DNA from: Corallococcus exiguus
GTDB lineage: Bacteria > Myxococcota > Myxococcia > Myxococcales > Myxococcaceae
NCBI RefSeq assembly: GCF_013248915.1
Contig: NZ_JABNNE010000050.1
Length of the DNA stretch: 41,125 nucleotides
Reading direction: 5' to 3' (one strand)
Shown: positions 5,120 to 41,125 of the stretch, piece after piece
Layout of the letters: every line of letters starts with the position of its first letter
Position numbering within the stretch: the first letter of the stretch is position 1
Position numbers and translations under genes: made by a program
Notes under the pieces: generated by a model
Database searches by the model: none
Seen by the model: the letters and a program-made list of their open reading frames with translations, nothing else
What the model was told of the DNA's origin: nothing

Positions 5120-6040
5120 ATGCCCCCGCGCAAGCTCCAGCGACATCTGGTCTGGCTCGAGTCCTTCACCGCCGCCGTGGAGGCCGGCAGCATCGACGCC
5201 GCCGCGGAGCACCTGGGCGTCGCCCGCTCCGTCGTGAGCGAGCACATCCGCGCCCTGGAGGAAGCGCTCGCGGATGGCGCCGCCCTGCTGGAGCGGGGGC
5301 CGGGCCGGCGCCTGCAACTGTCCGCGCGTGGAGAGCGCCTCTACGCGGGCACCCAGACGCCGCTGCACCAGCTGGACGTGAAGCGGCTGATGGACCTGGC
5401 CCGCGTGGAGCCCACCCTGCGCCTGGGCCTCAACCCCACGCTGTCCATGTCGCTGTTGGGCGGCATCGCGCAGGACGCCGCCGCCGCCGACCTCAAGCTG
5501 GTGGTGGGCTTCGGCGGCTCGCACGAGCTCATGCGGCAGGTGCAGACGCGGCAGCAGGACCTGGCGCTCGACTTCACCCCCCTGCCCCCGCACGAGGGCG
5601 TGGACACCGAGTCCCTGCTGCGCATGTCCTTCGTCGTCATCGCGGGCCCGGACTCCGCGCTCGCCCGGACGCACACCTCCCGCCGCTCCCTGGACGTGAA
5701 GGACCTCCAGGATCAGCGTTTCGTGGACTGGCTGCGGGACGACCCCTACGGCGGCGCCAACAGCGCGCGCTTCGCAGCGCACGGCGTCTCCGTCACCGAG
5801 GTCGGCCGGGTGGAGAGCTTCCTCCACCTCTACGAGCTGCTGCGCGCGTACAAGGCCTGCACCATCGCCCCGGACGTGCGCCCCACCCAGCCGTTCCCCG
5901 CGGATCTCCACGTCTGGCCCCTGCGCGAATTGGAGCCCCAGGTCGTGGAGGTGGTGGCCGTCTGGCCCTCTGGCGGCCTCAGCCCCGCCGTCCAGGCCAT
6001 CCTCGACGGGGTGCGTCGCCGCTTGAACAAACGACGATAA
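5120..6040 (+). CDS. LysR-family transcriptional regulator
   Basis: N-terminal wHTH (LVWLESFTAAVEAGSIDAAAEHLGVARSVVSEHIRALEEAL) and C-terminal substrate-binding-like domain; located immediately upstream of the hydroxylase gene. Confidence 0.8.
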   Translation: MPPRKLQRHLVWLESFTAAVEAGSIDAAAEHLGVARSVVSEHIRALEEALADGAALLERGPGRRLQLSARGERLYAGTQTPLHQLDVKRLMDLARVEPTLRLGLNPTLSMSLLGGIAQDAAAADLKLVVGFGGSHELMRQVQTRQQDLALDFTPLPPHEGVDTESLLRMSFVVIAGPDSALARTHTSRRSLDVKDLQDQRFVDWLRDDPYGGANSARFAAHGVSVTEVGRVESFLHLYELLRAYKACTIAPDVRPTQPFPADLHVWPLRELEPQVVEVVAVWPSGGLSPAVQAILDGVRRRLNKRR

Positions 6041-6096
6041 TCCGACGAAGACGTCGAATTCTGCCGGATTTCCGTCTTGCAGTGGGGTGCGTATTC

Positions 6097-6120
6097 TTCA
6101 GGAGTCCTGCATCTCCTGAA
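6097..6120 (+). promoter_or_regulatory. perfect dyad TTCAGGAG-N8-CTCCTGAA overlapping the RBS (GAAGGAG) of the hydroxylase gene
   Basis: 8-bp inverted repeat seen directly; placed between the LysR gene and the ATG at 6134; candidate LysR-type operator or translational hairpin. Confidence 0.3.
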
Positions 6121-6133
6121 GGAGCCGCTCGCG

Positions 6134-7729
6134 ATGACGCCCACGGAACGGACCATTGCCCGCCTTCCCGCCCACCTGCGCCGCTACGTGGTGGGCCAGG
6201 ACTACGCGGCGTACACGCCCAGGGATCAGGCGGTGTGGCGGCACATCCTGGGGCAGCTGCGCGAGCACCTGAGCGACAAGGCGCACCCCGTCTACCTGGA
6301 GGGCCTGGAGGCCACGGGCATTGGCGCGGAGGCCATCCCCAGCCTGGACGAGATGAACGAGAAGCTGTCCCAGCTGGGCTGGTCCTGCGTGGCGGTGCGC
6401 GGCTTCATCCCGCCGGCCGTCTTCACGGAGCTGCAGGCGCTGGGCGTGCTGGCCATCGCGGCGGACATCCGCACGCACGAGCACATCCAGTACACGCCCG
6501 CGCCGGACATCGTCCATGAGAGCGCGGGCCACGCGCCCATCATCGCGAACGCGCGGTACGCCCAGTACCTCAAGGCCGTGGGGCTGGTGGGCTTCAAGGC
6601 CATCGCCAGCGTGGAGGACCAGGCCGTCTTCGAGGCCATCCGCAACCTCTCCGTGGTGAAGGAGGACCCCACCGCGACGGAGGAGGAGATCGCCCACGCC
6701 CAGGCCCGCCTGGAGGCCGCCAACGCCAGCCACCGCTACATCAGCGAGAGCACCCGCGCGAGCCGCCTGTACTGGTGGACCGCGGAGTACGGGCTGATTG
6801 GCGACCTGAAGCACCCGCGCATCTACGGCGCGGGCCTGCTGTCCAGCATCGGCGAGGCCCGGCACTGCCTGACGTCCGCCGTGCACAAGCTGCCCCTGGG
6901 CGTGGCGTGCGCGGACACGGACTACGACATCACCCGCATGCAGCCGCAGCTCTTCGTGGCGCGCGACTTCGAGCACCTCTTCGAAGTCCTGTCCGAGTTC
7001 GAGTCCACGCTCGCGTGGAAGCGCGGCGGAGACCTGGGCCTGAACGAGGCGCTGCGCGCGCGCACGGTCAACCACCTGGTGCTCGCGGACGGCCGCGAGG
7101 TGACGGGCAAGGTGGTGGAGCTGCTGCCCGCCGCGAAGGACGTGGCCCCGGGCCTGTCCACCGCGCTGGCCCGGCTGGAGGGCCCCATCCTCACGTCCAT
7201 GAACGGGCACGCCCTGGACAAGCCGTTCAGCGGCGCGGCGCTGGTCGCCTTTGGCCAGGGCACCCTGCCGGAGCGCGGGAACTTCACGCTCACGCTCGAC
7301 AGCGGGCTGGTGCTGGAGGGCTTCGCGGTAGGTGGCGGAGAAGTGATTGCCCTGCGCGGCACGCTGGCCGGCCAGGAGCTGACGCTGCCGTCCATGGCGC
7401 GCCTGTACCTGACGGAGCGGCTGCCGTCCGTGGCGGGCGGCCCCGCCGACCCGGGCACGTGGGACGAGTGGTTCGGGGAAATGGACGCCTTCACCGCGGG
7501 CGACGGCGAGGCCCAGGCGCGCGAGCGCAAGGCGCAGGCCCTGCCCGCGTCGCTGGCCGCCCTCTACACGGAGGTGCGCCGCATCCGCGAGACGGGGCAG
7601 CTGGCCGCCGAGCGGCTGGAGCAGATCGCCCGCGCGTCCACGGACTTCCCCACCGACTGGCTCCTGCGCGCCGAGGTCGCGGAGCTGCGCGGCGAGGTGC
7701 CCGCGCGGCGCGAGGCGGCGCAGGCGTAG
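6134..7729 (+). CDS. phhA: aromatic amino-acid hydroxylase (phenylalanine-4-hydroxylase family), long form with ~250-aa C-terminal extension
   Basis: Iron-ligand motifs PDIVHESAGHAP (HxxxxH) and YWWTAEYGL (Glu ligand); YGAGLLSSIGE; co-linear with eukaryotic PAH catalytic core; start moved to MTPTER (RBS GGAG 9 nt upstream). Confidence 0.75.
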   Translation: MTPTERTIARLPAHLRRYVVGQDYAAYTPRDQAVWRHILGQLREHLSDKAHPVYLEGLEATGIGAEAIPSLDEMNEKLSQLGWSCVAVRGFIPPAVFTELQALGVLAIAADIRTHEHIQYTPAPDIVHESAGHAPIIANARYAQYLKAVGLVGFKAIASVEDQAVFEAIRNLSVVKEDPTATEEEIAHAQARLEAANASHRYISESTRASRLYWWTAEYGLIGDLKHPRIYGAGLLSSIGEARHCLTSAVHKLPLGVACADTDYDITRMQPQLFVARDFEHLFEVLSEFESTLAWKRGGDLGLNEALRARTVNHLVLADGREVTGKVVELLPAAKDVAPGLSTALARLEGPILTSMNGHALDKPFSGAALVAFGQGTLPERGNFTLTLDSGLVLEGFAVGGGEVIALRGTLAGQELTLPSMARLYLTERLPSVAGGPADPGTWDEWFGEMDAFTAGDGEAQARERKAQALPASLAALYTEVRRIRETGQLAAERLEQIARASTDFPTDWLLRAEVAELRGEVPARREAAQA

Positions 7730-7767
7730 GGCCCGTCGCTTCGAATCCCGGACGGATGACGCGCAAC

Positions 7768-7801
7768 GGCCCGGTCGACCTCTTCACGAGGTCGCCGGGC
7801 C
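7768..7801 (+). terminator. hairpin between convergent hydroxylase and LysM-peptidase genes (ggcccggtcgacctc / gaggtcgccgggcc)
   Basis: 14/15-bp inverted repeat with 5-nt loop in the 100-bp convergent intergenic region. Confidence 0.45.
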
Positions 7802-7831
7802 GAATCACTTCCAGGGCTTTCGCCGCCGGGG

Positions 7832-9556
7832 CTACTTGTTGATGCGCACCATGGCCACGTCGTAGTGGCGCTCGGTCACGTAGCCGTTCGCGGCCTTGCC
7901 GGGGCGGTACATGTTCCCGGTCTTGTCATCCACGTAGAAGCGGTTGTTCGGGTTCGTGTCCTTGCCCGTGCTGGCGTTCTTCGTGCCCGGGTCGTGGAAC
8001 GTGTAGTAGGTGCGGCCCTTGTCGTCGACGCCGCGGCCCGTGATGGTCACGAAGTGGTCCGTGAGGCCGTCCGCGTTGTAGCTCGCGTCCTTGTGGCTCA
8101 CGCCCACGACCACCGGCTTGCCGGCCTCCAGCTGCTTGTCGATGTAGCTGCGCCCCTCGGCGGCCTTCTTCGAGTCCACGTTGAGCGCGCCGACGCCGTT
8201 CTCGCTCTTGCCCACCTGGATGCGGCGGTCCGGGCCCAGCACGGTCGCGCCGGAGTCACGCGCCATCGCCGTCGCGGCCTTGAAGCACGCCGTGTCGCTC
8301 GCGGTGTAGCCGTGGCCGTTCTCGAACTGGCTGTAGTACGGCACCTTCACGTGCACCGCCGGCTTGTCCTTGGACGGGGCCACCTGCTCCGTGTTCGCGG
8401 GAGCCGCCTCCGTGGTGGGCTTGGAGGTGTTCGTGCCCTGCGTCGTGGGCTTGCCTTCCGTGGTGCCCGGCTTCGAGCCGTTGTTCACGGACGGGGGAAC
8501 CACGCCCGTGTTGGTGTTGGCCGGCTTCGTCGTGGTGCCCGACTTCTCCTGCTTCAGCATCGCGAGGGCGTCCTTCGCCTCCGACTTGAAGCGGTTGGCC
8601 ACGCCCTTCTGCACGTCCTTGGAGCTGCCGGAGAAGTGCACCAGGGTGCCGCTGGCGTTGGTGCGGCCGCGCTCGGCGTAGATGTCCTTGATGAGCTGCT
8701 CGTCGCTCACCTTCGCGGGGTCGCGCCCGTTGAGCGCCTTCTTGAAGATGTCATCCGCCTTGCCCGGGCCGTGCTGCACGGAGGTGGACCAGGCCACGTC
8801 CCGCAGCGCCGCGGAGCGCTTGTCCAGGTCGATGCCCGTCGCCTTCTTGATGTTGGCGGCGCCCGCGTCGTAGTGCGTGGTCTTGATGTAGTCGTGCTGC
8901 GCCTTGTCGAAGCCCTTCGGGTCCTTCGCCGCCAGCTGCTTCCACGCGGCGGAGAACTCCGCGGTGCCCGGCTTGCTGCCCGACAGCGCCTTGTGGAAGT
9001 CCGGGTTCGTCTTCTTCAGCGAGTTGACGAACGACTGCGCGGACCCGTTCGCGGAGGCGAACTGGTAGGAGCCGTAGGACACGCCGCCCTTGTCACCCTT
9101 GCCCGTGGACACGGTGCCGGGGCCGCGCGCCTCGTACTTGCGGCTCAGCCCGCCCAGCTCCCCGTTGGTCGCGCTGCTGGAGTTCGTGTTCGCGGCGGGC
9201 GTGGTCGCCTTCGCGCCGTCCGTGGACTGCGTGAAGCTGTCGCCCGACGTCTTCGTCCCCGCGCTCGACTTGTTGGTGCCCTTCGTGTCGAAGCCGTCCT
9301 GCACCTTCAGCGTCTGGCCAGCCAGGATCTTGTTCGGATCCTTGATGTTGTTCGCCTTGGCCAGCGCGTCAACGGTCGTGTTGTAGCGCTTCGCGAGGCC
9401 GGAAAGCGTGTCGCCCGAATTGACGCGGATGTTGGAGACGGTCACGGAGAAGACCCCTCTATGTCTGGCCGCGACCAAAGGCGCCGCGGACGTGCTTGGA
9501 TTGCCCGGATTATCGAAAGGCAATGTGATCAGTTTCGCATTCCCAGTCACAATCAT
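7832..9556 (-). CDS. LysM domain + central unknown domain + C-terminal C39-like (papain-fold) cysteine peptidase; putative cell-wall-targeting hydrolase
   Basis: LysM near N-terminus ([48 protein letters not shown]); C-terminal VPYYSQ...[12 protein letters not shown]...[10 protein letters not shown] matches Peptidase_C39-like YYxQ/Cys/His pattern; Thr/Ser/Asn/Pro-rich linkers; no obvious signal peptide. Confidence 0.7.
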
Positions 9557-9578
9557 GTGAAACCAGTGATTCCAGCAA

Positions 9579-9614
9579 CTTCAGTTTCAACGGATCGATC
9601 CGCTGAGACTGAAG
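9579..9614. promoter_or_regulatory. nested dyad in divergent promoter region: CTTCAGT-N22-ACTGAAG enclosing the perfect palindrome GGATCGATCC
   Basis: Seen directly; lies ~25 bp upstream of both divergent start codons (9556 minus, 9639 plus). Confidence 0.3.
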
Positions 9615-9638
9615 AACCTGCCCAGGAGGACCAGTCCG

Positions 9639-17192: not shown

Positions 17193-20100
17193 CTACCGGC
17201 GCGCCTTGCGAGCCGGCTTGCCCCGAGTGGTCTTCTTCGCCGCGGCCTTCTTCGCGGCGGTCTTCTTCCCCGCCGCCTTCTTCGCCGAAGCCTTCTTCGC
17301 AGGAGCCTTCTTCACCGCCGCCTTCTTCGCGGCCGTCTTCTTGCCCGCTGCCTTCTTCGAGGAAGCCTTATTCGCAGGGGCCTTCTTCGCGGCGGACTTC
17401 TTGCTCGCCGCCTTCTTCGCGGAGGCCTTCTTCGCAGCGGCCTTCTTCACCGCCGCCTTCTTCGCGGAGGCCTTCTTCGCAGGGGCCTTCTTCACCGCCG
17501 CCTTCTTCGCGGAGGCCTTCTTCGTCGGAGCCTTCTTCACCGGCTTCGCCGAACCCTCCGGAGCCTCGCGGGCGTCGCCGCCCTCCTTGGCCCGGTCGAA
17601 CTCGCGCATCGCGTCGTCCACGAGGCCCATGCTCATGTACGCGACGCCCAGGTCGTGGTGGTCCGCCGGGGACAGCCCTTCCTTGGTGCCCTCGCGCAGC
17701 TTGTTGAGGGCCTCCTCCACCACCGGATCCGCGGCCTGGGGCGCCTGCGAAGCCTCTTCGGCTTCAATCTCGCCCTTCAGCTCCTGGCCCAGGTTCACCG
17801 CATCGTCCTTCGGTGCCTGCGGCTCGGTGGCCACCTTCACCTGGGCGCTCTCGGGCGCGGGGGACTCGGACGCTTCAGGGGCTTCGGACTCGGTGCTGCC
17901 CGGCAACGGCGACGGCGTCTCGGACATGGGGGGCTCCGGGGCGATGCGCTGGAGGTGATCCTGCAGCTTGACCGTGCGCTCCTGGAGCTCCGCCACCCGG
18001 GCCTTGTCCTTCTCCACCACGTCCGGCGGAGCACGGGCCACGAAGTTCGGGTTGTCCAGCTTGCGCTGCAAACCGGTGAGTTCCTGCTCGGAGCGGACGA
18101 TCTCCTTCTTCAGGCGGTCGCGCTCCGCGTCCAGGTCCACCAGGCCCGCCAGGGGCACGTAGATTTCCAGGTTGCCGCTCACGAACGCCGCCGCCTGCGG
18201 AGGCTTGGCGCCCGGGGGGCCCACCACCACCTCGGACAGGCCCGCGAGCGGCATCAGGTACGCGCGCCAACGCTCCAACAGCTCGCGCGTCGTCGCGTCC
18301 GGGCTCTGCACCACCGCCTTCACCTTGGCGGACGGCGGCAGGTTGCTCTCGCCGCGCAGCGTGCGCAGGCCCTCGATGGCCGCGATGACCGGCGCCATCT
18401 CGCCTTCCGCGGCCGCGTCCACCCACGCCGTCTCCGGCGCCGGGTACGCCGCGATGCAGATGCTCTCCGTGGGCCGGGACATCGGCAGCTTCTGCCAGAT
18501 CTCCTCGGTGATGAACGGCATGAACGGGTGCATCAGCCGCAGGATGCGGTCCAGGCACGTCACCAGCACCGCGCGCGTGGTGTCCTTGGCCTCCGCGTCG
18601 TCGCCGTACAGCGAGCCCTTCGCCAGCTCGATGTACCAGTCGCAGAACTCCGCCCACAGGAACTGGTACAGCGTGGATGCCGCCTCCGCGAAGCCGAACG
18701 CCTCCAGCGACGCGCGCGTCTCCTCCGTGGCCTTCTGCAGGCGGGAGAGGATCCACCGGTCCGCCAGCGTCAGCTTGCGGCCCTCGAGCGGCGTCTTGTC
18801 CAGGCTGAAGTCGCCCATGTTCATCAGGGCGAACCGGCTGGCGTTCCACAGCTTGTTGCAGAACGCCTTGTAGCCACCCAGGCGGTCCATCGACAGCTTG
18901 ATGTCACGGCCCTGCTGCGTGAGCGACGCCAGCGTGAAGCGCAGCGCGTCCGCGCCGTGCGCCGGCATGCCCTGCGGGAAGCGGTTGCGCAAGGACGGCT
19001 GCAGCGACTCCGCCTTCGCGCCGAGGATGACGTCCAGGGGATCGATGACGTTCCCCTTCGTCTTGGACATCTTCTCGCCCTTCTCGTCGCGCACCATCGC
19101 GTGCAGGTACACGGTGCGGAAGGGCACGTCGTTCATGAAGTGCAGGCCCATCATCATCATCCGGGCGACCCAGAAGAAGATGATGTCGTGGCCCGTCTCC
19201 ATCACGGACGTCGGGTAGAAGGTCTGGAGGTCCGCCGTCTGCTTCGGCCAGCCCAGCGTGGAGAACGGCCACAGCGCGGACGAGAACCAGGTGTCCAGCA
19301 CGTCCGGATCCTGCGTCAGCTCCTTGCCGCCGCACTTCGGGCAGGACTCCGGCGCCGTGCGAGACACGATGACGTCCGCCGTGTCCTTGGAGCGCTCCTC
19401 CGCCGGGGTGCACGCCGCGCAGTACCACGCGGGGATCTGGTGGCCCCACCACAGCTGGCGGCTCACGCACCAGTCGTGGATGTTGTTCATCCAGTGGAAG
19501 TACGTGTTCGTCCACGACTCGGGGACGAACTTCGTGCGGCCCTCCTCCACGGCCTGGATGGCCGGCTTCGCCAGCGGTTCAATCTTGATGAACCACTGCG
19601 GCGACAGGCGCGGCTCCACCACCGTGGTGCAGCGCTGGCAGGTGCCCACGTTCAGCTTGTGCGGCTCCTCCTTCTCCAGCAGGCCCAGCTCCGTCAGGTC
19701 CGCCAGCACCTGCTTGCGCGCCTCCCGGCTCTCCAGGCCCGCGTACTTGCCGGTGTCCTTCGTCATCCGCGCCGCTTCGTCCAGGATGGACAGCATCGGC
19801 AGCTTGTGGCGCAGGCCCGTCTGGTAGTCGTTGAAGTCGTGCGCGGGCGTGACCTTCACCACGCCGGTGCCGAACTCCATGTTCACCAGCTCGCCGTCCG
19901 CGATGACCGGAATCTCACGGTCGGTGAGCGGCAGCGCCACGCTCTTGCCGATGAGGTCCTGGTAGCGCGGATCCTCCGGGTGCACGGCGACGGCCGTGTC
20001 GCCCAGCAGCGTCTCCGGGCGCGTCGTCGCCACGGTGAGGAAGCGCTCCGTGCCCTTCACCGGGTAGCGGATGTGCCAGAGCGAGCCGTTCTTCTCCTCG

Positions 20101-20687
20101 TGCTCCACTTCCAGGTCGGAGAGGGCCGTGCGGCAGGACGGGCACCAGTTGATCAGCTTCTGGGCCCGGTACATCAGGCCCTCTTCGTACAGCCGGACGA
20201 ACACCTCGCGCACCGCGGCCGAGGACTGCTCGTCCATGGTGAAGCGCTCGCGGCTCCAGTCCAGGGACGCGCCCAGGTAGCGGTGCTGCTCACCGATGCG
20301 CGCGCCGAACTTGCCCTTCCACGTCCAGACGCGCTCGAGGAACGCCTCGCGGCCCAGGTCGTGGCGGCTCTTGCCCTCCCTCTTCTTGAGCTCCTTCTCC
20401 ACCACCATCTGCGTGGCGATGCCCGCGTGGTCCGTGCCCGGCAGCCAGAGCGCGTTGAAGCCGCTCATCCGCTTCCAGCGCGTGAGGATGTCCTGGATGG
20501 TCGCGGTGAGCGCGTGGCCGATGTGCAGGCTGCCCGTCACGTTGGGCGGCGGCAGCACGATGCTGAACGGCGGCTTGGAGGAAGGGGCTTCGGCGCGGAA
20601 GTAGTCGCGCTCCAGCCAGTGGTTGTACCACCGCGCCTCCACTTCGGAGGGCTCGTAGGCCTTGGACAGTTCAGTCGTGTCAGTCAT
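17193..20687 (-). CDS. valS: valyl-tRNA synthetase with ~280-aa C-terminal extension (acidic S/P/E linker, TPR-like helix pair, Lys/Ala-rich histone-H1-like tail)
   Basis: HIGH motif [15 protein letters not shown]; KMSKS motif KMSKTKGN; canonical C-terminal coiled coil, then the extension ending in [22 protein letters not shown] repeats. Confidence 0.9.
17200..17560 (-). repeat. low-complexity codon repeat (gccttcttcgc units on plus strand) encoding the (A/S/P)KKA tail of ValRS
   Basis: Seen directly as ~12-nt periodicity. Confidence 0.55.
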
Positions 20688-32801: not shown

Positions 32802-33770
32802 ATGGTCAACGTGAGGCAGGTCGCGACGCGGCTGAAGAGTGCGTTCCTGGCGGACCCGGAGCGCTTCTATACGAACGAGACGGGAGCCTGGGTGGCGGGG
32901 ATGCCGGCGCCGAGCGACATCCGGGTGACGACAGGCCGGGAGCCCTTCTGGATCAACCTGGGCTACTGGAAGCACGTGGAGAAGGTGGACGACTCCAACG
33001 TGGAGCGCGTGGGGGAGCTGTTCCGGTCCGCCCAGGCGGAGATGGCGCGCCTGTTGGCGAGGACGGCGAAGCTGGGGCCTGGGGATGCCGTCTTGGACTG
33101 CGGCTTCGGGTACGCGGACCAGGACCTGCTGTGGGCGGAGGAGTTCAAGCCCGCGAGCATCGTCGGGGTGAACATCACGCCGAACCAGGTGAAGGTGGGC
33201 CGGGAGCGCGTGAAGCTGACGGGGCTGGAGGGCGTGATCCGGCTGGAGGTGGGGAGCGCGACGGCGCTGCCTGGGCCGGAGGGAGCGTTCGACGGGGTGT
33301 TCGCGCTGGAGTCCGCGATGCACTTCCGGACGCGGCAGGACTTCCTGCGCGAGGCCTTCCGGGTGTTGAAGCCGGGAGGCCGGCTGGTGATGGCGGACAT
33401 GGCGCAGAAGACGGACCGTGAGGCTGGAGCAGGACTCCGAGCGCGGCTGCGCTACCGCTACTGGCGGGGGCTGATTGCCTTCCCGGAAGAGAACGTCTGG
33501 TCGACGGAGCGCTACCAGTCGGAGCTGCGGCGGGCGGGGTTCCAGGACGTGAAGGTGGAGTCCATCGCGGAGGATGTGTACCCGGCGGTGAACACGGCGC
33601 TGGTGGCGCTGCGGGGCATGACGCAGCTGGAACGCAATCCAGGGAGCACGTCCCTGCACCAGGTGCGCGCGGACGTGCACAAGGCGATGCGGATGACACC
33701 GGAGCAGCTCCAGTGGCCCGCGCTGTTCAACTGCGACGAGTACGCCGTGGTGTCCGCGCGCAAGCCGTGA
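32802..33770 (+). CDS. class I SAM-dependent methyltransferase (natural-product O-methyltransferase-like)
   Basis: Motif I VLDCGFGYADQDL, motif post-I/II, LKPGGRLVMADM. Confidence 0.75.
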   Translation: MVNVRQVATRLKSAFLADPERFYTNETGAWVAGMPAPSDIRVTTGREPFWINLGYWKHVEKVDDSNVERVGELFRSAQAEMARLLARTAKLGPGDAVLDCGFGYADQDLLWAEEFKPASIVGVNITPNQVKVGRERVKLTGLEGVIRLEVGSATALPGPEGAFDGVFALESAMHFRTRQDFLREAFRVLKPGGRLVMADMAQKTDREAGAGLRARLRYRYWRGLIAFPEENVWSTERYQSELRRAGFQDVKVESIAEDVYPAVNTALVALRGMTQLERNPGSTSLHQVRADVHKAMRMTPEQLQWPALFNCDEYAVVSARKP

Positions 33771-33812: not shown

Positions 33813-33911
33813 GGTAGGGCCTCCGGACCTGGTGGCCGGCCCGGTCTTCAAAACCGGTGAGGGGCTGCGAGAGCAGTCCCTGGCGAGTTCGATTCCCGTG
33901 CCCTACCGCCA
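33813..33911 (+). tRNA. selC: tRNA with UCA anticodon and long variable arm; probable tRNA-Sec (selC-like)
   Basis: 8-bp acceptor stem GGTAGGGC/GCCCTACC + G73 + CCA; anticodon arm CCGGT-cTTCAaa-ACCGG (U33, UCA, A37); 8-bp variable-arm stem with GAGA loop; T-arm GCGAG-TTCGATT-CCCGT (one A.C mismatch); 8/5 architecture. Confidence 0.5.
33847..33911 (+). repeat. attL-like: 3' 65 nt of the tRNA (anticodon loop to CCA), direct repeat partner at 38137..38201
   Basis: 62/65 identity with the downstream copy, same orientation. Confidence 0.65.
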
Positions 33912-33965
33912 CCCACTCCTCTGCGAACCTGGTGGTTGAAAAAGCTGTGCGCGACGTGACGACCC

Positions 33966-34481
33966 TCAGAATGCTGCGACACCGAGACTCATCCCCGCAA
34001 TCGTGTTGATCTTGGTACGCCAAGCCTCTGGCGTCATGAGGTAGGGCTCAAGCATTCTGATCAACTCCTGGCTTGGGCGATTCGTCGTATAGCCAGGCTT
34101 TCCTGTTCGCCCCCCCGTCTTCCATGAATCCGTTTTCGTCCACTCCATCGCCTCCGCGACGCCAACGGACTCTGCGTACGTCAGCGCATACGCGCGAGTA
34201 TCGGAGGGGCGATCGAGGTCCCATACATAGACGAGGAGAAGCCGTCGAAACTTCTCGTACTTCTTGTGGACGCTGAACGACCTATCCGAGTGTGCCTTCA
34301 GTTGGATGGGACAGGCGATGAAGTCTCCCACCTGCTGATCCAGGTCGCTGTAGACGATCAGGTCGATTCCGCGGTCTCGCTCTGGGCGTGCCACTTCCAA
34401 ACCGGCACGGAGGAGTTCTGTTACGATCCAGTTTCGACCAACAAGCTCCACCATCTGAGAGTCCATACCAGCTTGTACCAC
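33966..34481 (-). CDS. hypothetical protein with PD-(D/E)xK-like motif (restriction-endonuclease fold candidate)
   Basis: ELLRAGLEV...RGIDLIVY...IQLKAHS pattern resembling the Hjc/PD-(D/E)xK core; AT-rich upstream region. Confidence 0.4.
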   Translation of the reverse strand: MVQAGMDSQMVELVGRNWIVTELLRAGLEVARPERDRGIDLIVYSDLDQQVGDFIACPIQLKAHSDRSFSVHKKYEKFRRLLLVYVWDLDRPSDTRAYALTYAESVGVAEAMEWTKTDSWKTGGRTGKPGYTTNRPSQELIRMLEPYLMTPEAWRTKINTIAGMSLGVAAF

Positions 34482-34717
34482 TCGACCAACGTGGCCTCGT
34501 GACGAAGAGGCGCTATGCCGTCAGGCGGACTACGCGGAGTGGCAAACTCTTGCGCTTGCCGCCGCACCCACACGGCCGAGCCCTATGGTCGCTTTCAATA
34601 CCTATTGGGTTTATTGATATTAGACTTTTCACCGCGAGCGCCACAGGCCCTGTCCCACGCAGCCGAGGCCCCACCAGTGTACCGCACCGGATTGTTGAGA
34701 CACCAGGTTGGTCGTAA

Positions 34718-35611
34718 TCAGGCCGCTTGCTTCTGCATCAGTTCCCGCCGGGCCTGACTCGGCGAGAGGAAGTGGTGACGCTCCAGCAACCAGTGCTCGT
34801 TGTACCGGTGAGCCCACTCCAGCAGCGCCAGCCGGAGTTCCTCCACGGTGGCGAAGGTGCGCACCCAGAGCAGTTGCTCCTTGAGGGTACGGATGAAGCG
34901 CTCGGCACAGCCGTTGCCCTCGGGACTGCGGACGAAGGAGGGACTGGACACGGCCCCCAGGAAGCGCAGCTCGTTCTGGAAGGCGTCGGAAGTGTACTGG
35001 CTGCCGTTGTCGTGGCGGATGGACAGCCCCGCGGCCACGCCCCGGCCGTACGCCCCGAAGCGAGCCTTGACGCCCTGGCGGATGGGCTCGAGGGCCTCGA
35101 AACGGGTGCCGACCTTGGCCGCGTGGATGCCGACGCACTCGGCGGTGCCGTGGTCGATGGCGATGAAGACGGTGGCCTGGCCCTCCAGCTTCGTCACGGT
35201 GCAGGTGGCGTCGGTGCCCCACATGACGTCGGGCTTGTCGGTGGTAATCGTGCCGTCATGGTTGCGCGGTCCCAGCACCCGGCGGGCCCTGCCCGGTGCC
35301 AGCAGCCCTGCCTCGCGCATCCGCCGCAGGCAGCGGGCCTTCGACGTGCGTACGCCCTGAGCGCGAAGCCGGGCCCATACCTTGCGGTGCCCCTCGCCCA
35401 GAAACGGGGAGGCGGCCAGCACGCCGCGGATGGCCTCCAGCAGCGCCTCGTCCGTCAGCGCCGTCTTCGGGCCTCGCCGGGCTGTCGGAGAGAGCGCTGC
35501 CTGCCGGCGGGCACGGTGCCGGTACACCGTGGCGCGAGGCACTCGCCAGGTGGCCGTCACGAGCACCAGTCCGTACGGCTTGCCGCTGGAAGGCGAGAGA
35601 CTGGCGCTCAT
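34718..35611 (-). CDS. IS3-family transposase OrfB (rve integrase core, DDE)
   Basis: VMWGTDATCT...FIAIDHGTAECVG...IRHDNGSQYTS...NGCAERFIRTLKEQ (D, D, E catalytic residues in rve spacing); the track's 445-aa ORF is a frame read-through over orfA. Confidence 0.75.
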   Translation of the reverse strand: MSASLSPSSGKPYGLVLVTATWRVPRATVYRHRARRQAALSPTARRGPKTALTDEALLEAIRGVLAASPFLGEGHRKVWARLRAQGVRTSKARCLRRMREAGLLAPGRARRVLGPRNHDGTITTDKPDVMWGTDATCTVTKLEGQATVFIAIDHGTAECVGIHAAKVGTRFEALEPIRQGVKARFGAYGRGVAAGLSIRHDNGSQYTSDAFQNELRFLGAVSSPSFVRSPEGNGCAERFIRTLKEQLLWVRTFATVEELRLALLEWAHRYNEHWLLERHHFLSPSQARRELMQKQAA

Positions 35612-35952
35612 CCTCTCGACTTCCTCCAGGGAAAACCCGGCGCGTTGCCCTCCAGCAGCCGGGCCTTCTGCGCCAGCAACTCGTTCTTCATCATCAGCTC
35701 GCCCACCATGGCCTTGAGCCGCAGCACCTCGTCGTCCGCTGCTTCCGGCTCGCGGCTCTTGAGGTTCGCCTCGGCCCCAGCCAGGAACTTCTCCCGCCAC
35801 TCGCTCAGCACCGCTGCCGTGACGCCCAACTCTCGGGAGAGGGCGTCGAGCTCCTCGCCCTTGAGCAGACGGAGCACGGCCTCCTTCTTCCGCTTCGCCG
35901 AGAACCGACCGCGCTCTGCCGTCCTGTCCTGCTTCTGCTTCTTCACATCCAC
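35608..35952 (-). CDS. IS3-family transposase OrfA (HTH DNA-binding)
   Basis: MDVKKQKQDRTAERGRFSAKRKKEAVLRLLKGEELDALSRELGVTAAVLSEWREKF + leucine-zipper-like C-terminus. Confidence 0.75.
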   Translation of the reverse strand: MDVKKQKQDRTAERGRFSAKRKKEAVLRLLKGEELDALSRELGVTAAVLSEWREKFLAGAEANLKSREPEAADDEVLRLKAMVGELMMKNELLAQKARLLEGNAPGFPWRKSRG

Positions 35953-36241
35953 CTCGCGAGGGGGAGGCTATCCCCCAGAAAGGTGTCTCAGGAATCCCTG
36001 GGGCGGAGGAAGGGCGACGTGGCGTACACCTCGTCCGGTGACCGGTAAGCTGCACGAAGTGTCGGCCGCCGCGCGCTGAGATCCGAGCGGACGTGCAGTT
36101 CCCGTAGGCACGCCGTCAGCCCCACGCACTCGCCCCAGCGATGGGTCAGCCTGGAGCACCTGTCAGCTCTATCTGGTATTGCACGACCTCGTGACGACGT
36201 GGCCTTCCGGCGAACGGGGGCCAGCGCCAGGAGGCCTCCGC

Positions 36242-37594
36242 ATGCTGCCACGATGGTCGATTGCGCTGCTGATCGTGATGCTGGCCGGATGCAGCAGCAC
36301 TACGAAGTCCGTGCGCCTACACACGGGCCACGGCGACCCCATCGTCCTCGCCCCACGCAGCGGCGATGCCGCGCCGGTGGAGTTGGACGAAGACGACTTT
36401 GTTGAAGCCGTAGCAGCGCTCGCTCAGCGCGTGCGGCCGTCCACGCGTCCCCAGGAAACAGCCCGGGGGTTGTTCGAGGTGGATCCACGCAGCGGTTCGT
36501 ACCTGTACGAGCCGCGCAGCCACCGTGTCATCCCGCTGGGACCGGGCGAACACCTGGAGGGCGAACGCCCCTCAACAGAGGTGGAGTTGACGCGCGCATA
36601 CCTTCGCTGGTGCGAGCGAACGAGCAATCCCGGCGATTGCCTGCGCCTCCTGATGGAGAGCCCCACTGTCACCGGGGATGGCCGTTACGCCCTGGCCATG
36701 GCCTTGGCCCAAGGCGTCGTGCGGGACGAGATGATGGACGCCTTCAAGGAGATGGCTGATCCCCAGGCCATGATGGCTGCGGTTCTTTGGACGTGGACCA
36801 CGTACTGCATCTTGCTCGCGGTGCCCGAGCCTTTCTCGAAGGGCGTGGCCGCGGTGATGACCGCCTCCCTCATTGCCTACGTGGGGGTCGATACGTTCTG
36901 GAGCCTCATCTTGGGCTTCAAGCAGCTGGTGGAGGAGGTGGAGCTGGCCACCACGTTTGACGAACTCCGCGAGGCGGGTGAGCGCTACGGCAAGGTCATG
37001 GGCCGCAACGCGGCGCGCGCGTTCGCCATGTTGGCCACGGCCGCCCTTGGGAACACGGCGGCGGGGCTGGGGGCGAAGGTGCCCATGCTGCCCGGCGCCG
37101 CGCAGGCGGCGGTCCAGGCTGAAGCGCAAATGGGCATCAGGCTCGCGGCGGTCGCGGACGTGGGAACGGTGGCCGTGAGCGCCGAGACCGTCACCATCGC
37201 CCTCGCGCCCGGCGCGGTGGCCATGGGGGCCAAAGCCACGGGCGGCAGCGCCTCCGCCAAGGCGCGCCCCTCGGGCTACAGGGCCTGGGGCTCGTTCAGT
37301 GGTTTCAAGAAGGCCATGGGCCCGGCGGGCAAGAACAAGGAGTGGCACCACATCGTCGAGCAAACCACGGGCAACGTGAAGCGCTTCGGCCCCCAGGCCC
37401 TCCACAACACCGAGAACCTCATCCCACTGGACAAGAGCCTGCACAGCGACGTCAGCGCGTTCTTTTCGTCGATTCGACGCGATATCACCGGCTCGCCATT
37501 GACCGTACGGCAATGGTTGAGCACGCAGTCCTACGAGGCCCAACGTGACTTCGGGCTTCTGGCCATCGAGAACGTCGGAAAGGGGCTCTGGTGA
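36242..37594 (+). CDS. lipoprotein polymorphic toxin with C-terminal WHH-type HNH/EndoVII nuclease domain (SitA-like)
   Basis: Lipobox LIVMLAGCSS after signal peptide; strong RBS GGAGG; Ala/Gly-rich pre-toxin linker; C-terminal KNKEWHHIVEQ...NTENLIPLDKSLHSD (WHH His-Asn-His HNH core). Confidence 0.7.
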   Translation: MLPRWSIALLIVMLAGCSSTTKSVRLHTGHGDPIVLAPRSGDAAPVELDEDDFVEAVAALAQRVRPSTRPQETARGLFEVDPRSGSYLYEPRSHRVIPLGPGEHLEGERPSTEVELTRAYLRWCERTSNPGDCLRLLMESPTVTGDGRYALAMALAQGVVRDEMMDAFKEMADPQAMMAAVLWTWTTYCILLAVPEPFSKGVAAVMTASLIAYVGVDTFWSLILGFKQLVEEVELATTFDELREAGERYGKVMGRNAARAFAMLATAALGNTAAGLGAKVPMLPGAAQAAVQAEAQMGIRLAAVADVGTVAVSAETVTIALAPGAVAMGAKATGGSASAKARPSGYRAWGSFSGFKKAMGPAGKNKEWHHIVEQTTGNVKRFGPQALHNTENLIPLDKSLHSDVSAFFSSIRRDITGSPLTVRQWLSTQSYEAQRDFGLLAIENVGKGLW

Positions 37595-37944
37595 TGAAGT
37601 TGCAGGACCTTGTCGAGCAGTTCGTCGAGAACGTAGTCGCGCAGAACGAGGCCATCTTCCGGGGAGACGCCAAGACGGGAAACAAGCACGCCAGGAAGTA
37701 CGGTGCCGCCGTCGATAAGCTCCTGGCCCACGGCAATGCCGGACGTGACGCTCTCGCCGTACTGCTCAAGCATGAGCGCATGGACGTGCGCGTGATGGCT
37801 GCCGCGCATCTGCTCCGCTATCGGACGGCCGAAGCCAAAGCGGTCCTGGAGGAAGCGGCCAAGGGGCAGGGGCTGGTCCCGTTCGGAGCGCAGCAGGCAT
37901 TGAAACGTTGGGAAGAAGGAACCTGGGCGCTCGATCCTGAGTAG
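37591..37944 (+). CDS. putative cognate immunity protein (all-helical, 116-117 aa)
   Basis: Start (GTG 37591 or ATG 37594 with RBS AAAGGGG) overlaps the toxin stop (GTGATG); small cytoplasmic helical protein, the typical size and placement of an immunity gene. Confidence 0.5.
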   Translation: MMKLQDLVEQFVENVVAQNEAIFRGDAKTGNKHARKYGAAVDKLLAHGNAGRDALAVLLKHERMDVRVMAAAHLLRYRTAEAKAVLEEAAKGQGLVPFGAQQALKRWEEGTWALDPE

Positions 37945-38136
37945 TTCTGATCGTGGCTGAGGAGGCCATGGCGCGCGCGGGCATCTCCGGCGCGCAGGTC
38001 ACAGCTTTCACCGTCCAGGTGCAGCCAATGGACGGACGCGGGTGAAGCGCCATGGACTCGCCACCCACCCCACTCCAGAGGGAAACCGGCCGCCCCTCCA
38101 GCCCTCCGAGCACCTCGCGGCTCGGGGTGGCGGGGA

Positions 38137-38201
38137 TTCAAAACCGGTGAGGGACTGCGAGAGCAGTCCCTGGTGAGTTCGATTCCCGTTCCCTACCGCC
38201 A
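38137..38201 (+). repeat. attR-like partial tRNA 3'-half copy (direct repeat of 33847..33911)
   Basis: TTCAAAACCGGTGAGGGACTGCGAGAGCAGTCCCTGGTGAGTTCGATTCCCGTTCCCTACCGCCA; 5' half of the tRNA is absent. Confidence 0.65.
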
Positions 38202-38331: not shown

Positions 38332-39534
38332 ATGCTCACGCTCCCTGACGTAGCCACAGAAACGCGCGTTGCACGGGTTCGCAAGGCGCTCTCCGAGGAG
38401 CTGTTCTTCGTCCGCGGCGTCAGCCTGCTGCTCGTGGTGCTGGTCCATGTGATTGGCGTGGAGCCCTTCCAGGGGTTGCGCAAGCTCTTCGCTCCGGAAC
38501 GTGCGGAGTTGCGGTTCGCGGCGGAGCTCATCCACAGCTTCAACATGGCGGTGATGATCATCGGCTCGGGTGTGGCGGTGTCGCTCTTCGGCGCGCCGGA
38601 ATCGTCCTTTCGGGAGTTCGTGCACAAGAAGCTGCGCAAGCTCGTCATCCCCATGGGGGTGTGGGCCCCCGTCTTCCTCTACACCCATGAACTCTCCCAG
38701 GCGCGCCCGCGGACACCTGGCGGATGGCTGGCGCTGCTGGGCCAGTTCCCTGCCGCGTGGTTCCCTCCGTACGCCATCTTCTGGTTCATTCACGCCCTGG
38801 TGGGATGCACCTGTCTGGCGTGGGTGTATCAGCGCATCGTGCCCGCCCGGTATCACTGGGACGGGCTGAGCTACCTGGGCCTGTCCTGGGTGCTGTATGC
38901 CGCTGTCGAGGCCCTGGACTCTCCCCTGTCTGGAATTGGGATGAGATACCTCCGCTTCATCCTCTTCTGGAACTGCCTCTTCGGTCTGGGAATGAGCCTG
39001 TCTCCCTGGCTGGTGCTGGCGCGCACCCGGCTGTCCCAGTGGCCTCTGGCGCTCCAGGGACTGGTGCCCTTGGGATTCCTGGGACTGCTGGTCTCGTTCC
39101 ATGTCTCGGGGCTCGCGGAGGGGCTTCTGGATCCGCGACTGATCACGGGGCCGCTGGGCTTCTGCATGCAATTCACCCTGGCCATCTTCCTCCTGGGTGC
39201 CTCGTGGAAGGGATTGGCGATCCGGCTTGTCTACCTGGGCTCGATCAGCATGCCCCTCTACCTGTTCCACATCTATTTCGTGTCCGGGATGCGACTGGCT
39301 TTGGGCAAGGTGCTGCCAGGAGCGCCGCTCGTGCTGCACCTGGCGCTGGGCTCACTCGTCGGGCTGATGGGACCCCTGGGCCTCTACCTCCTCCTGGAGA
39401 GGAACCGTGCCTTCCGGTGGAGCATCGGTCTGCCGGGTGTCCCTTTGGACACGCCCGGCCTCGGCGCGGATGAGTCCCCTGGCACCCGGCCACGGCGGGT
39501 GGAGGCATCAACCATGAAAGGGGCCGACGTATGA
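38332..39534 (+). CDS. polytopic membrane protein, acyltransferase-3 (OafA-like) family candidate
   Basis: ~10 predicted TM helices; N-terminal R-x10-VRGVSLLLVVLVH resembles the acyltransferase_3 RG...H start motif. Confidence 0.5.
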   Translation: MLTLPDVATETRVARVRKALSEELFFVRGVSLLLVVLVHVIGVEPFQGLRKLFAPERAELRFAAELIHSFNMAVMIIGSGVAVSLFGAPESSFREFVHKKLRKLVIPMGVWAPVFLYTHELSQARPRTPGGWLALLGQFPAAWFPPYAIFWFIHALVGCTCLAWVYQRIVPARYHWDGLSYLGLSWVLYAAVEALDSPLSGIGMRYLRFILFWNCLFGLGMSLSPWLVLARTRLSQWPLALQGLVPLGFLGLLVSFHVSGLAEGLLDPRLITGPLGFCMQFTLAIFLLGASWKGLAIRLVYLGSISMPLYLFHIYFVSGMRLALGKVLPGAPLVLHLALGSLVGLMGPLGLYLLLERNRAFRWSIGLPGVPLDTPGLGADESPGTRPRRVEASTMKGADV

Positions 39535-39657
39535 ACCCAAATGAAGTGTTTCCTAATCGACAAAATGTTTGTGTTTCAGGGAGGGACGGCCATGCTGGCT
39601 GGCTAAACCAAAGTTCATGGAGGCCCCCTCTGAGCGCCTCCATTCCCCGGAGTTGTC

Positions 39658-41125
39658 ATGGACGTGATGCGAGCCAGCAGGGCCCTGCTGCTGGGACTGG
39701 TCTGTGTTGCAGCAGGCTGTAGCAGCAAGCCGCCAGAAGAGAAAACGCTGACCCACAGCGCTTCGCCGTTGGTGGTGGAGGGGTGGACCGAGACCGCACC
39801 CATGGCGGAGGCTCGGAAATACCACGCGGGTGTCGTGCTGCCTTCCGGCAAGGTGCTGGTGACGGGCGGATACAACGCCAGTGGTTATCTCTCCTCCTCC
39901 ACGCTCTTCGACCCCGCGACCGGTGCGTGGACAGCGGCCGCGCCCATGCCGGAGGCCCGACAGAGTCACGCCCTGACGCTGCTGCCTTCGGGCAAGGTGC
40001 TGGTCGTCGGCGGAGAGAATGCGACGGGCCGCCTGGCTTCCGCGGCGGTGTATTCCCCGGACACCAATACCTGGGCCCCCGCGGGAAGCTTCGCCACGGG
40101 CGTGGCTCGGGCGGCCATGACGACGACGCTGCTGCCTTCAGGCAAGGTGCTGGTGGCCGGCGGTGGAAACGGTACGGGGGCGTCCTTCCGGGTGGATGTG
40201 TATGACCCGGCCTCCGGAAGCTGGAGTGTCGGACCGAACCTGGGCGCGCCGCGTCGCAACCACACGGCGACACTGCTGCCTTCGGGCCAGGTGCTGGTGG
40301 CGGGCGGCGTCGAGAGCGGGAGCCTGGCGACTGCCGAGGTGTACACCCCCTCGAGCAATACCTGGTCGGCGACGGGGAGCCTCGCGACAGCGCGCTACGA
40401 CCATACGGAGACGCTGCTGCCTTCGGGCAAGGTGCTGGTGGTGGGTGGCCGTAACAGCAGCGGACTGTTGGCGACAGCGGAGGAGTATGACCCGAGCACC
40501 GGGCAGTGGAGTGCGACGGGCGCGCTGGGCGCGGCCAGGATGCTGCACACCGCCACCCTGCTGAGCACCGGGAAGGTGCTGGTGGCCGGCGGAATGTTTG
40601 GCAGCGCCGCGACGGCTGCCCTGGCGAACACGGAACTGTACGACCCTGTCACCCGGCAGTGGAGCGCGGCGACGCCGATGGCTGGTGCGCGGTATTCGCA
40701 TGTGGCGGTGTCGCTGGGGACGCATGCCAAGGTGTTGGTGGTGGGCGGCATCGGCGCCAACGCCGCGAGCCAGAAGACGGCGGAGGTGTATGGGTATGAC
40801 GCGTGCGCCGGAGTGACGTGCAACAACTCCCCAGGGTCCTGCCATGAGGCGGCGGGAACATGCAGCAATGGGGTGTGCAGCTACGCGCCGAAGGCGACCG
40901 GGGCCACCTGTGACGACGGCAATGCGTGCACCGGGGCGGACGTGTGCAACGGCGCGGGCGTGTGCGCGGGGAGTGCCACCCAGTGCGGCAGTCCTCCGGG
41001 GCAGTGCTACGAGACGGCGGGAACGTGCAGCGATGGGACGTGCTCCTACGCGTACAAGGCGACGGGCGCCGCGTGTGATGATGGGGATGCGTGTACGGTG
41101 GACGAAACGTGCAACGGGGCGGGCG
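39658..41125 (+). CDS. Kelch-repeat beta-propeller lipoprotein with C-terminal Cys-rich (CxDGxxCT) repeats; 3'-truncated by window end
   Basis: Signal/lipobox LVCVAAGCSS; at least 7 Kelch-type repeats (PR..H.ATLLPSGKVLVAGG); tandem Cys-rich modules CDDGNACTGADVCNGAGVC; not in ORF track because no stop is reached. Confidence 0.7.
   Translation, partial: MDVMRASRALLLGLVCVAAGCSSKPPEEKTLTHSASPLVVEGWTETAPMAEARKYHAGVVLPSGKVLVTGGYNASGYLSSSTLFDPATGAWTAAAPMPEARQSHALTLLPSGKVLVVGGENATGRLASAAVYSPDTNTWAPAGSFATGVARAAMTTTLLPSGKVLVAGGGNGTGASFRVDVYDPASGSWSVGPNLGAPRRNHTATLLPSGQVLVAGGVESGSLATAEVYTPSSNTWSATGSLATARYDHTETLLPSGKVLVVGGRNSSGLLATAEEYDPSTGQWSATGALGAARMLHTATLLSTGKVLVAGGMFGSAATAALANTELYDPVTRQWSAATPMAGARYSHVAVSLGTHAKVLVVGGIGANAASQKTAEVYGYDACAGVTCNNSPGSCHEAAGTCSNGVCSYAPKATGATCDDGNACTGADVCNGAGVCAGSATQCGSPPGQCYETAGTCSDGTCSYAYKATGAACDDGDACTVDETCNGAG

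Follow-up and report, generated by a model that had tools for sequence, protein, structure and literature searches.

A 41,125-nt stretch of the Corallococcus exiguus genome (NCBI RefSeq assembly GCF_013248915.1, contig NZ_JABNNE010000050.1; hereafter the window) contains a gene for selenocysteine tRNA (tRNA-Sec) and, directly behind it, an islet of ~4.3 kb (33912-38201) that ends in a second, partial copy of that gene and encloses a nuclease gene, an insertion sequence and a sitA5-sitI toxin-immunity cassette. ARAGORN, run over the whole window, reports one tRNA, a tRNA-SeC (tca) at 33813-33911 on the + strand, with its UCA anticodon at 33848-33850. The Rfam tRNA-Sec model RF01852 matches 33813-33907 at 70.5 bits against a gathering score of 47 (E = 1.4e-12), the covariance-model match being full-length (model positions 1-91). 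Folding of the tRNA alone yields a cloverleaf (z-score -3.1) with an 8-bp acceptor stem, a 7-nt anticodon loop (CUUCAAA) and, in the centroid structure, a 9-bp variable arm closed by a GAGA loop; a G followed by an encoded CCA can be read directly from the sequence at 33908-33911. The loci of six other Corallococcus genomes carry the gene with 100% identity, a degree of conservation which argues that it is probably under selection.

Directly upstream of tRNA-Sec lies a methyltransferase gene (32802-33770) with weak, sub-threshold NCBIfam matches to methyltransferase selenoprotein families. One of these, NF047649, reaches 60.9 bits against a cutoff of 460 and reflects shared-domain similarity only; the gene ends in an ordinary TGA stop, with no evidence of recoding.

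The 3' part of the tRNA gene occurs twice in the window. Positions 33847-33911 (+ strand), which begin with the second base of the anticodon loop and end with the CCA, recur as a direct repeat at 38137-38201 (+ strand), with 62 of 65 positions identical (blastn E = 6e-26). We refer to these copies as the left and right attachment sites, attL and attR. Three substitutions private to attR separate it from the tRNA, at 38154 (G>A), 38174 (C>T) and 38190 (G>T); no tRNA 5' half lies beside it, and blastn finds no further copy of the repeat within the 41-kb window. In relatives, the block of identity includes one more base at its 5' end, C32 (33846), with which the anticodon loop opens, and so spans 66 nt, a start that is seen in the more intact att copies of the related loci L021, L024 and L032. 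A boundary in the anticodon loop is the expectation for integrases whose crossover falls there. Homologues of attR are found in various states of preservation, from 66 nt with 100% identity to the tRNA in L021, and a copy in L024, to a degenerate version in L002, 45 nt in L029 and an 18-nt remnant in L020 that matches the tRNA exactly.

To place this arrangement among relatives, species-representative genomes were scanned with the upstream methyltransferase, which gave 19 loci, eight of them (all Corallococcus) with tRNA-Sec directly after the methyltransferase gene. Homologous proteins led to two further loci, L020 (Corallococcus sp. AB038B) and L030 (C. carmarthensis), which complete a ten-locus comparison set (L001-L006, L017, L018, L020 and L030); exact-protein look-ups of the window's methyltransferase and of its right-flank acyltransferase returned nothing on record, and homologues were used instead. 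Across the ten loci the left flank is 79-98% identical to the window, and synteny is lost 0-12 nt after the CCA. Beyond this point at least seven different sequences follow among the nine loci compared. In two loci, L006 and L017 (C. llansteffanensis and C. interemptor), a gene for a Phage_integrase-family tyrosine integrase follows the tRNA at a distance of ~110 nt, accompanied by one for a DUF3854/DUF5906 protein that we read as primase/helicase-like. On the metagenome contig L032, an integrase 43% identical to that of L006 is followed by a 66-nt att and then by the left end of an L001-type island; on this contig (3864-5154, 7503-8648) the 5' end of the integrase gene lies ~107 nt from the att, and a SitA5-family gene lies downstream. 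The spacer between integrase and att is not homologous to the corresponding arm of the window and carries a repeat of its own, GTCGTTAGCGCG, twice. The integrase of L032 represents a second family at the same core of tRNA-Sec, and its gene lies on the opposite arm. A further metagenome contig, L024, carries in succession tRNA-Sec, an island A (transposases, a SitA5-family AHH toxin and Imm11), an arm, a 66-nt att and DNA 95% identical to the left end of the window's islet. The presence of integrases at the same site in L006, L017 and L032 indicates that the window copy is a decayed derivative. No conjugation module was seen in any related element at the site, and neither the 45-nt att core nor the L006 integrase found a match in viral contigs.

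Between the cargo and attR, positions 38028-38136 (+ strand) form a conserved right-end arm, a putative P-arm remnant that contains degenerate copies of a (G/T)TACCCAAG repeat. The arm is 75% identical to the window in L002, 90% in L021 and 81% in L024, and the cargo adjacent to it differs in each. In the arms of L020 and L021 the 9-mer GTACCCAAG occurs twice, 11 nt apart, and in L006 and L017 a GTACCCAAG pair lies between the tRNA and the integrase gene, its second copy one base off (TTACCCAAG in L006). Among 24 loci the exact 9-mer has seven occurrences, all within ~110 nt of an att core. A 13-mer in the arm, CTCCAGAGGGAAA, stands at 38073-38085 of the window, in the arms of L002, L021 and L024 and, in L005, ~70 nt after the tRNA; it may be a chance match or a short functional site. 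It makes up the whole of the similarity between L005 and the arm, which we set aside as probably due to chance.

These data bear out the core of a preliminary description of this DNA, which had found the features of the gene to fit tRNA-Sec, had given the 65-bp repeat with the same coordinates and the same 62/65 identity, a match far beyond chance, and had taken the two copies for the attL and attR of an integration event: ARAGORN and Rfam agree on the tRNA, and the synteny breaks, integrases, tandem arrays and arm motif of the relatives back the integration. They also bear on a simpler origin of the second copy, as a partial tRNA pseudogene produced by non-site-specific duplication, through IS3 rearrangement or illegitimate recombination. 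An IS3 element does lie between the two copies, with no target-site duplication identified at its candidate ends, so rearrangement has occurred. Yet every lineage has the 5' boundary of the copy at the anticodon loop, and the DNA that leads up to the copy is a conserved arm bearing integrase-linked repeats. L021, L024 and L002 have homologous att copies without having this IS3, and in L006, L017 and L032 such copies are flanked by integrases. We regard a pseudogene origin as extremely improbable, the least credible of the explanations that we considered.

Between its two att copies the islet is a composite. Its left module has a G+C content of 58%, compared with 69% in the flanks, and the IS3 element and toxin cassette, at 66-69%, are near the host value. 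The left module (33912-34677) consists of a nuclease gene and an AT-rich upstream region, in which 34590-34632 falls to 33% G+C against 69% for the window. The module is conserved, being 84% identical to locus L023 up to 34677 in addition to its likeness to the DNA that follows the internal att of L024.

The gene of the left module (33966-34481, - strand) encodes a 171-aa protein of a widespread uncharacterised family, with no match in Pfam or NCBIfam. Its 312 homologues derive mostly from soil metagenomes and from metagenome-assembled genomes (MAGs) such as those of Acidobacteria; among them E12, D40 and Q60 are invariant and K62 is nearly so. A confident AlphaFold model (predicted local distance difference test score, pLDDT, 89.8) presents the core alpha-beta-beta-beta-alpha-beta fold of PD-(D/E)xK nucleases, with the acidic residues and the lysine on strands 2-3. 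The structure resembles I-Ssp6803I at ~12% sequence identity, and Hjc and restriction enzymes are almost as similar, which indicates that only the fold is shared. Compared with small nucleases of the I-Ssp6803I/Hjc type, the window protein lacks an intron context, and its function is a prediction from the fold.

In the window, in L023 and behind the internal att of L024 alike, this gene lies ~55 nt away from the CCA, a position that raises the possibility of homing, in which the PD-(D/E)xK enzyme would cut an empty tRNA-Sec gene and repair would copy in the islet along with a replacement 3' half. The I-Ssp6803I-like fold and the lack of an integrase would suit such a mechanism. Yet the three co-occurrences amount to one inherited module (84-95% nucleotide identity), and the homologues in other phyla stand in defence-like contexts or in those of integrative and conjugative elements (ICEs), with no tRNA nearby. 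The near-equal similarity to Hjc and restriction enzymes, at 12% sequence identity, likewise speaks against a homing enzyme in particular, and the architecture is already accounted for by the integrases and arm repeats found at the site. We consider homing highly improbable.

The left module is followed by an IS3-family insertion sequence (34678-36030, - strand), whose left end is exact and whose right end falls between ~36010 and 36058. The element comprises orfA (35608-35952, - strand), which encodes a 114-aa protein recognised as HTH_Tnp_1 by Pfam, and orfB (34718-35640, - strand; 5' limit approximate), which overlaps orfA in another frame and encodes the DDE/rve transposase domain. Within the 445-aa open reading frame (ORF) of orfB, NCBIfam transpos_IS3 matches residues 159-436, and Pfam finds rve, rve_3 and HTH_21. 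The NCBIfam whole-protein score, 132 against a cutoff of 160, is below threshold because the two ORFs were scored separately. An imperfect internal inverted repeat pairs 34689-34704 with 35982-35997. In its overlapping orfA (HTH_Tnp_1) and orfB (rve) and its ~1.35-kb length the element agrees with the IS3 family, and the imperfect inverted repeat would be its terminal pair; it differs in standing at a deletion junction. The candidate ends examined, of which the right one is not fixed to the base, show no target-site duplication. Homology of the left module with L023 stops at 34677, the base preceding the IS3, and the toxin cassette starts near 36088, which places the IS3 where relatives have a 5.2-kb kinase block. 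The simplest reading of this junction would be an IS-associated deletion.

The remainder of the cargo is a sitA5-sitI (sitA5I) cassette (36088-38027, + strand) in which the toxin and immunity genes are preceded by an upstream region and followed by an 85-nt tail, and it recurs as a unit in relatives. The first gene, sitA5 (36242-37594, + strand), encodes a 450-aa lipoprotein polymorphic toxin with a signal peptide, a lipobox (LAGC, in the context MLPRWSIALLIVMLAGC, read from the translation rather than from a dedicated predictor) and a SitA5 escort domain, which NCBIfam NF050093 (SitA5_escort) detects at 385.6 bits against a cutoff of 160 in a match that covers residues 30-295 of the longer ORF. 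An NCBI entry annotated as 'SitA5 family polymorphic toxin [Corallococcus exiguus]' matches the protein with 100% identity. The second gene, sitI (37591-37944, + strand), has a start that overlaps the sitA5 stop by 4 nt, and its 117-aa product matches PF09450 (DUF2019) at 27.9 bits against a cutoff of 23.3; this DUF2019 protein is the expected SitI immunity partner of SitA5. The same toxin-immunity gene order is present in L029 and L030. Units 91-94% identical to the window cassette are found in these two loci (two complete and a truncated third in L029), and fragments occur in L004, L020 and L024.

In Myxococcus, SitA lipoproteins pass from cell to cell by TraA/B-dependent outer membrane exchange, enter the cytoplasm by means of a family-specific escort domain and kill cells that lack the cognate SitI, which is not itself transferred (PMC5562445, PMC8546572). 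The sitAI loci are operons, frequently on mobile DNA, that number 25-80 per genome, and SitA5 proteins have modular HNH/AHH toxin domains (PMC8546572; PMC5562445). By homology, SitA5 of the window would be delivered by outer membrane exchange, and its putative C-terminal nuclease would kill recipients that lack SitI; with delivery and killing of the kind known from the Myxococcus homologues, the cargo would serve kin discrimination. The window cassette shares with the Myxococcus systems an escort domain well over cutoff, a lipobox, an overlapping downstream immunity gene and a location on mobile-element DNA. It departs from them in its setting, since the best-studied loci lie in Mx-alpha prophage-like units whereas this one lies in a tRNA-Sec island, in the recurrence at that site of SitA5 cassettes, both in tandem copies and in the form of sitI remnants that are orphaned or truncated, and in a toxin domain that is predicted rather than confidently assigned.

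The contents of the islet had been anticipated in the preliminary description as an AT-rich patch, a PD-(D/E)xK-like gene, an IS3 element and a toxin-immunity pair in a decayed island without an integrase. The AT-rich patch is real, the nuclease assignment is right at the level of the fold, NCBIfam and Pfam agree on the IS3, and the pair is now identified as SitA5 and a DUF2019 protein; the IS3, in place of the relatives' kinase block, accords with decay.

Comparison of loci that share the window's two ends points to a long history at this site. L023 and L021 overlap with 97.6% identity and together describe one island of ~8.6 kb with the same two ends as the window. Its order is tRNA-Sec, the nuclease gene, a kinase-HTH-HTH-kinase-DUF2381 block, a 271-aa gene, PIN_12, an Imm11 remnant, the arm and a 66-nt attR, and beyond the attR of L021 a PMT_2 gene precedes the same acyltransferase flank as in the window. 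In L029 (C. coralloides CP034669.1), a homologue of window positions 34558-34677 is followed by the kinase block and then by sitA5I units (5628-10777): two full tandem copies, 91-93% identical to the window, and a truncated third in which the promoter and 5' part of sitA5 are fused to a divergent sitI, with the 45-nt att remnant directly after it. This array of toxin and orphan-immunity genes looks as if it was built by tandem duplication. The closest relative, AB038B (L020), has flanks 98% identical to those of the window and a more scrambled islet, in which two 3' fragments of sitI, an internal piece of sitA5, a fragment of IS3 in inverted orientation and an attR reduced to 18 nt remain. In L004, the 3' end of sitA5 and an internally deleted sitI lie ~95 nt after the tRNA. 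Two strains of C. carmarthensis (L002 and L030), with flanks 98.5% and 95.2% identical, carry different cargo between them: in L002, 3.5 kb of low-G+C DNA that includes a ParA-like gene and leads into the arm and the degenerate attR, and in L030, a sitA5I cassette 93.8% identical to that of the window. In all, the DNA linked to tRNA-Sec contains SitA5-family genes, or pieces of them, in the window, L030, L029, L024, L032, L020 and L004, occurrences that are not phylogenetically independent.

The conservation of attR and arm across several species indicates that the integration is old and that the locus is a hotspot of cargo turnover rather than the site of a recent single insertion. The repeat could have belonged to a conserved, non-mobile feature, a possibility raised at the outset; it is conserved, and it is tied to mobile DNA, which argues against that view. 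An empty site, with the tRNA followed directly by the acyltransferase gene, had also been expected among related genomes and was not found, as the three genomes that share the right flank (L020, L021 and L022) all keep attR or a remnant of it.

We favour, with high confidence, the view that 33912-38201 is the decayed remnant of an integrative element, ~4.3 kb long and with a sitA5-sitI payload, at a tRNA-Sec hotspot. On this account, a tyrosine recombinase would have inserted an element into the tRNA-Sec gene, with the crossover in the 7-nt anticodon loop. The attP of the element would have contributed a tRNA segment of its own, anticodon loop through CCA, which now would complete the functional gene as attL, and the original chromosomal 3' part would have been displaced to the far end as attR, where it may since have drifted by three substitutions. 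The ~110-nt arm before attR would have held the arm-type sites of the integrase, and loss of the integrase would have fixed the island in place. Later turnover of the cargo probably proceeded by deletion, IS activity, tandem duplication and replacement, while in other lineages further elements may have stacked in front by re-using the tRNA. In the window genome, the IS3 would have replaced the kinase block, leaving the nuclease gene and an intact sitA5-sitI operon.

Several observations weigh against this reconstruction. The window contains neither an integrase nor a fragment of one, as judged by the lack of a Pfam match and by tblastn with sister-species integrases, which returned only hits with E >1; the enclosed DNA had been described as free of an integrase from the beginning, and both searches uphold this. 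The (G/T)TACCCAAG repeat, which occurs twice in the arm, is intact in relatives and degenerate in the window, and it is from position only that we infer the GTACCCAAG and (G/T)TACCCAAG repeats to be candidate arm-type sites. The junction expected of an empty site is the tRNA-Sec CCA joined to ATATCAACGCGAGAC, and a 23-nt pattern of attR end plus right flank has no exact match in metagenome contigs. A single ancestral island underlies many of the loci compared, and these do not represent independent events. The cassette of L030 has neither arm nor attR, and for this reason the sitA5I of the window may have come in, or been swapped, separately from the integrase event. As to the payload, the C-terminal domain of SitA5 has a sub-threshold match to HNH_2 only (E = 0.034, 14.5 bits against 21) and no useful match in a PDB sequence search of solved structures; a WHH...N...N...H motif is visible in the domain, which is possibly an HNH-type nuclease.

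Some of the same observations bear on whether the islet is still mobile, as an att-flanked cis-mobilisable element (CIME) or satellite that is moved in trans by a tRNA-Sec-specific integrase encoded elsewhere and acts as a vehicle for sitA5I. Both att cores are nearly intact (62/65), with the anticodon-loop region TTCAAAACCGG preserved; integrases that target the tRNA-Sec site exist in the genus; L024 and L032 exhibit tandem accretion, a prerequisite of cis-mobilisation; and near-identical sitA5I units occur in several species. The arm repeats of the window are nevertheless degenerate compared with those of L020 and L021, the 41-kb contig has no integrase, the L030 cassette has no attR, and the backbone looks vertically inherited, its divergence tracking that of the flanks (84-90% identity in more distant lineages). 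We judge continued mobility in trans to be unlikely.

The range of genes found behind tRNA-Sec in other genomes extends past toxins and integrases. In L005 (Corallococcus sp. CA053C), a complete Pycsar pair lies just downstream of the tRNA (11285-12887), with a cNMP-binding (cyclic nucleotide-binding) TIR effector and a PycC cyclase (PADLOC E = 1e-111 and 1.6e-104), which indicates that the hotspot holds phage-defence systems too. Ser/Thr kinase, DUF2381 and HTH genes follow the tRNA in L001, and L003 abuts a high-G+C AlkZ-like gene and then a very long ORF (>1,600 aa). One could imagine the tRNA-Sec locus as a dedicated exchange point for conflict systems, at which islets moved in trans would shuttle sitA5-sitI, Pycsar and kinase modules and the nuclease at the attL junction might aid persistence or spread, a speculative proposal to which we attach little weight.

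Other features of the related loci were noted in passing. A few kb downstream of tRNA-Sec, L004 (C. aberystwythensis; 17850-20113) and L018 (C. exercitus AB043A; 8064-10185) have genes that, judged by N-terminal sequences rather than by a domain search, look like the phage-tail-like sheath and tube genes of a contractile injection system. The succession of methyltransferase and tRNA-Sec occurs only in Corallococcus, the Myxococcus, Pyxidicoccus and Archangium orthologues having no tRNA within 10 kb (L008-L016). In L023 and L024, tRNA-Sec comes after other genes (TetR plus an epimerase, or a TPR/Zincin_1 gene directly), and these different genes 5' of the tRNA indicate that the left flank, too, has been rearranged between lineages. 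L015, whose label is that of an Actinocatenispora MAG, has a methyltransferase gene with 78% nucleotide identity to that of Corallococcus (70% for the protein) and is probably a mis-binned myxobacterial contig.

To the right, outside the islet, an acyltransferase gene (38332-39534, + strand; Pfam Acyl_transf_3) has a patchy distribution of homologues; as a flank it is common to only a few lineages and is shared with L020, L021 and L022. The window then runs off its end within the start of a gene for a large, secreted-looking repeat protein (39600-41125), which is ~1297 aa in L020 and L021 and consists of ~48-aa units that may resemble Kelch repeats, followed by cysteine-rich repeats of ~55 aa. 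In these relatives a 1023-aa paralogue lies just downstream, ahead of Wzy_C, PIG-L and glycosyltransferase genes, an arrangement confined to few lineages. A consensus scan of the window for sigma-70 promoters and terminators was uninformative.

In kind, the islet is a classical tyrosine-recombinase tRNA island in a decayed, integrase-less state that resembles a CIME, with cargo from the known SitA5/SitI family. In enterobacteria, the repeats at selC islands are short and lie at the 3' end. CIMEs and the site-specific accretion of integrative elements are described in streptococci. Like the selC islands of E. coli, such as the locus of enterocyte effacement (LEE) and others, the decayed element of the window occupies the 3' end of tRNA-Sec, is bounded by a direct repeat of that end, varies in content between strains, is atypical in composition in its left module only and has relatives with an integrase beside the tRNA. 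It differs from them in its myxobacterial host, in having no integrase left, in the length of its repeat (65-66 nt), which starts in the anticodon loop, and in a cargo that is an inter-bacterial toxin-immunity pair rather than virulence genes. With two att sites and without integrase, excisionase or transfer genes, the islet answers in its structure to the description of a CIME, and the tandem accretion of relatives with integrase-bearing elements that share the att (L024 and L032) parallels the streptococcal case; it departs from that case in its degenerate arm sites, and any mobilisation of it would be putative.

What is new here is the host group, the definition of the att core, the candidate arm motif and the recurrence of SitA5 cassettes and conflict systems at one site. 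The use of selC as an integration site has been documented in enterobacteria and reported in other bacteria (e.g. PMC6174562, PMC2704930); the present locus extends it to Myxococcota and overturns nothing in current understanding. The att core, from anticodon loop to CCA, and the candidate arm motif could serve in tools for site-specific integration in Corallococcus. For the biology of the group, the tRNA-Sec locus offers a well-delimited example of myxobacterial kin-discrimination cassettes that sit on, and move with, integrative elements: related genomes carry at this site intact single cassettes, tandem triplications, orphan immunity remnants and, between strains of the same species, a full replacement of the cargo. 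This is the pattern that would be expected if social compatibility types were reshuffled at the tRNA-Sec locus.

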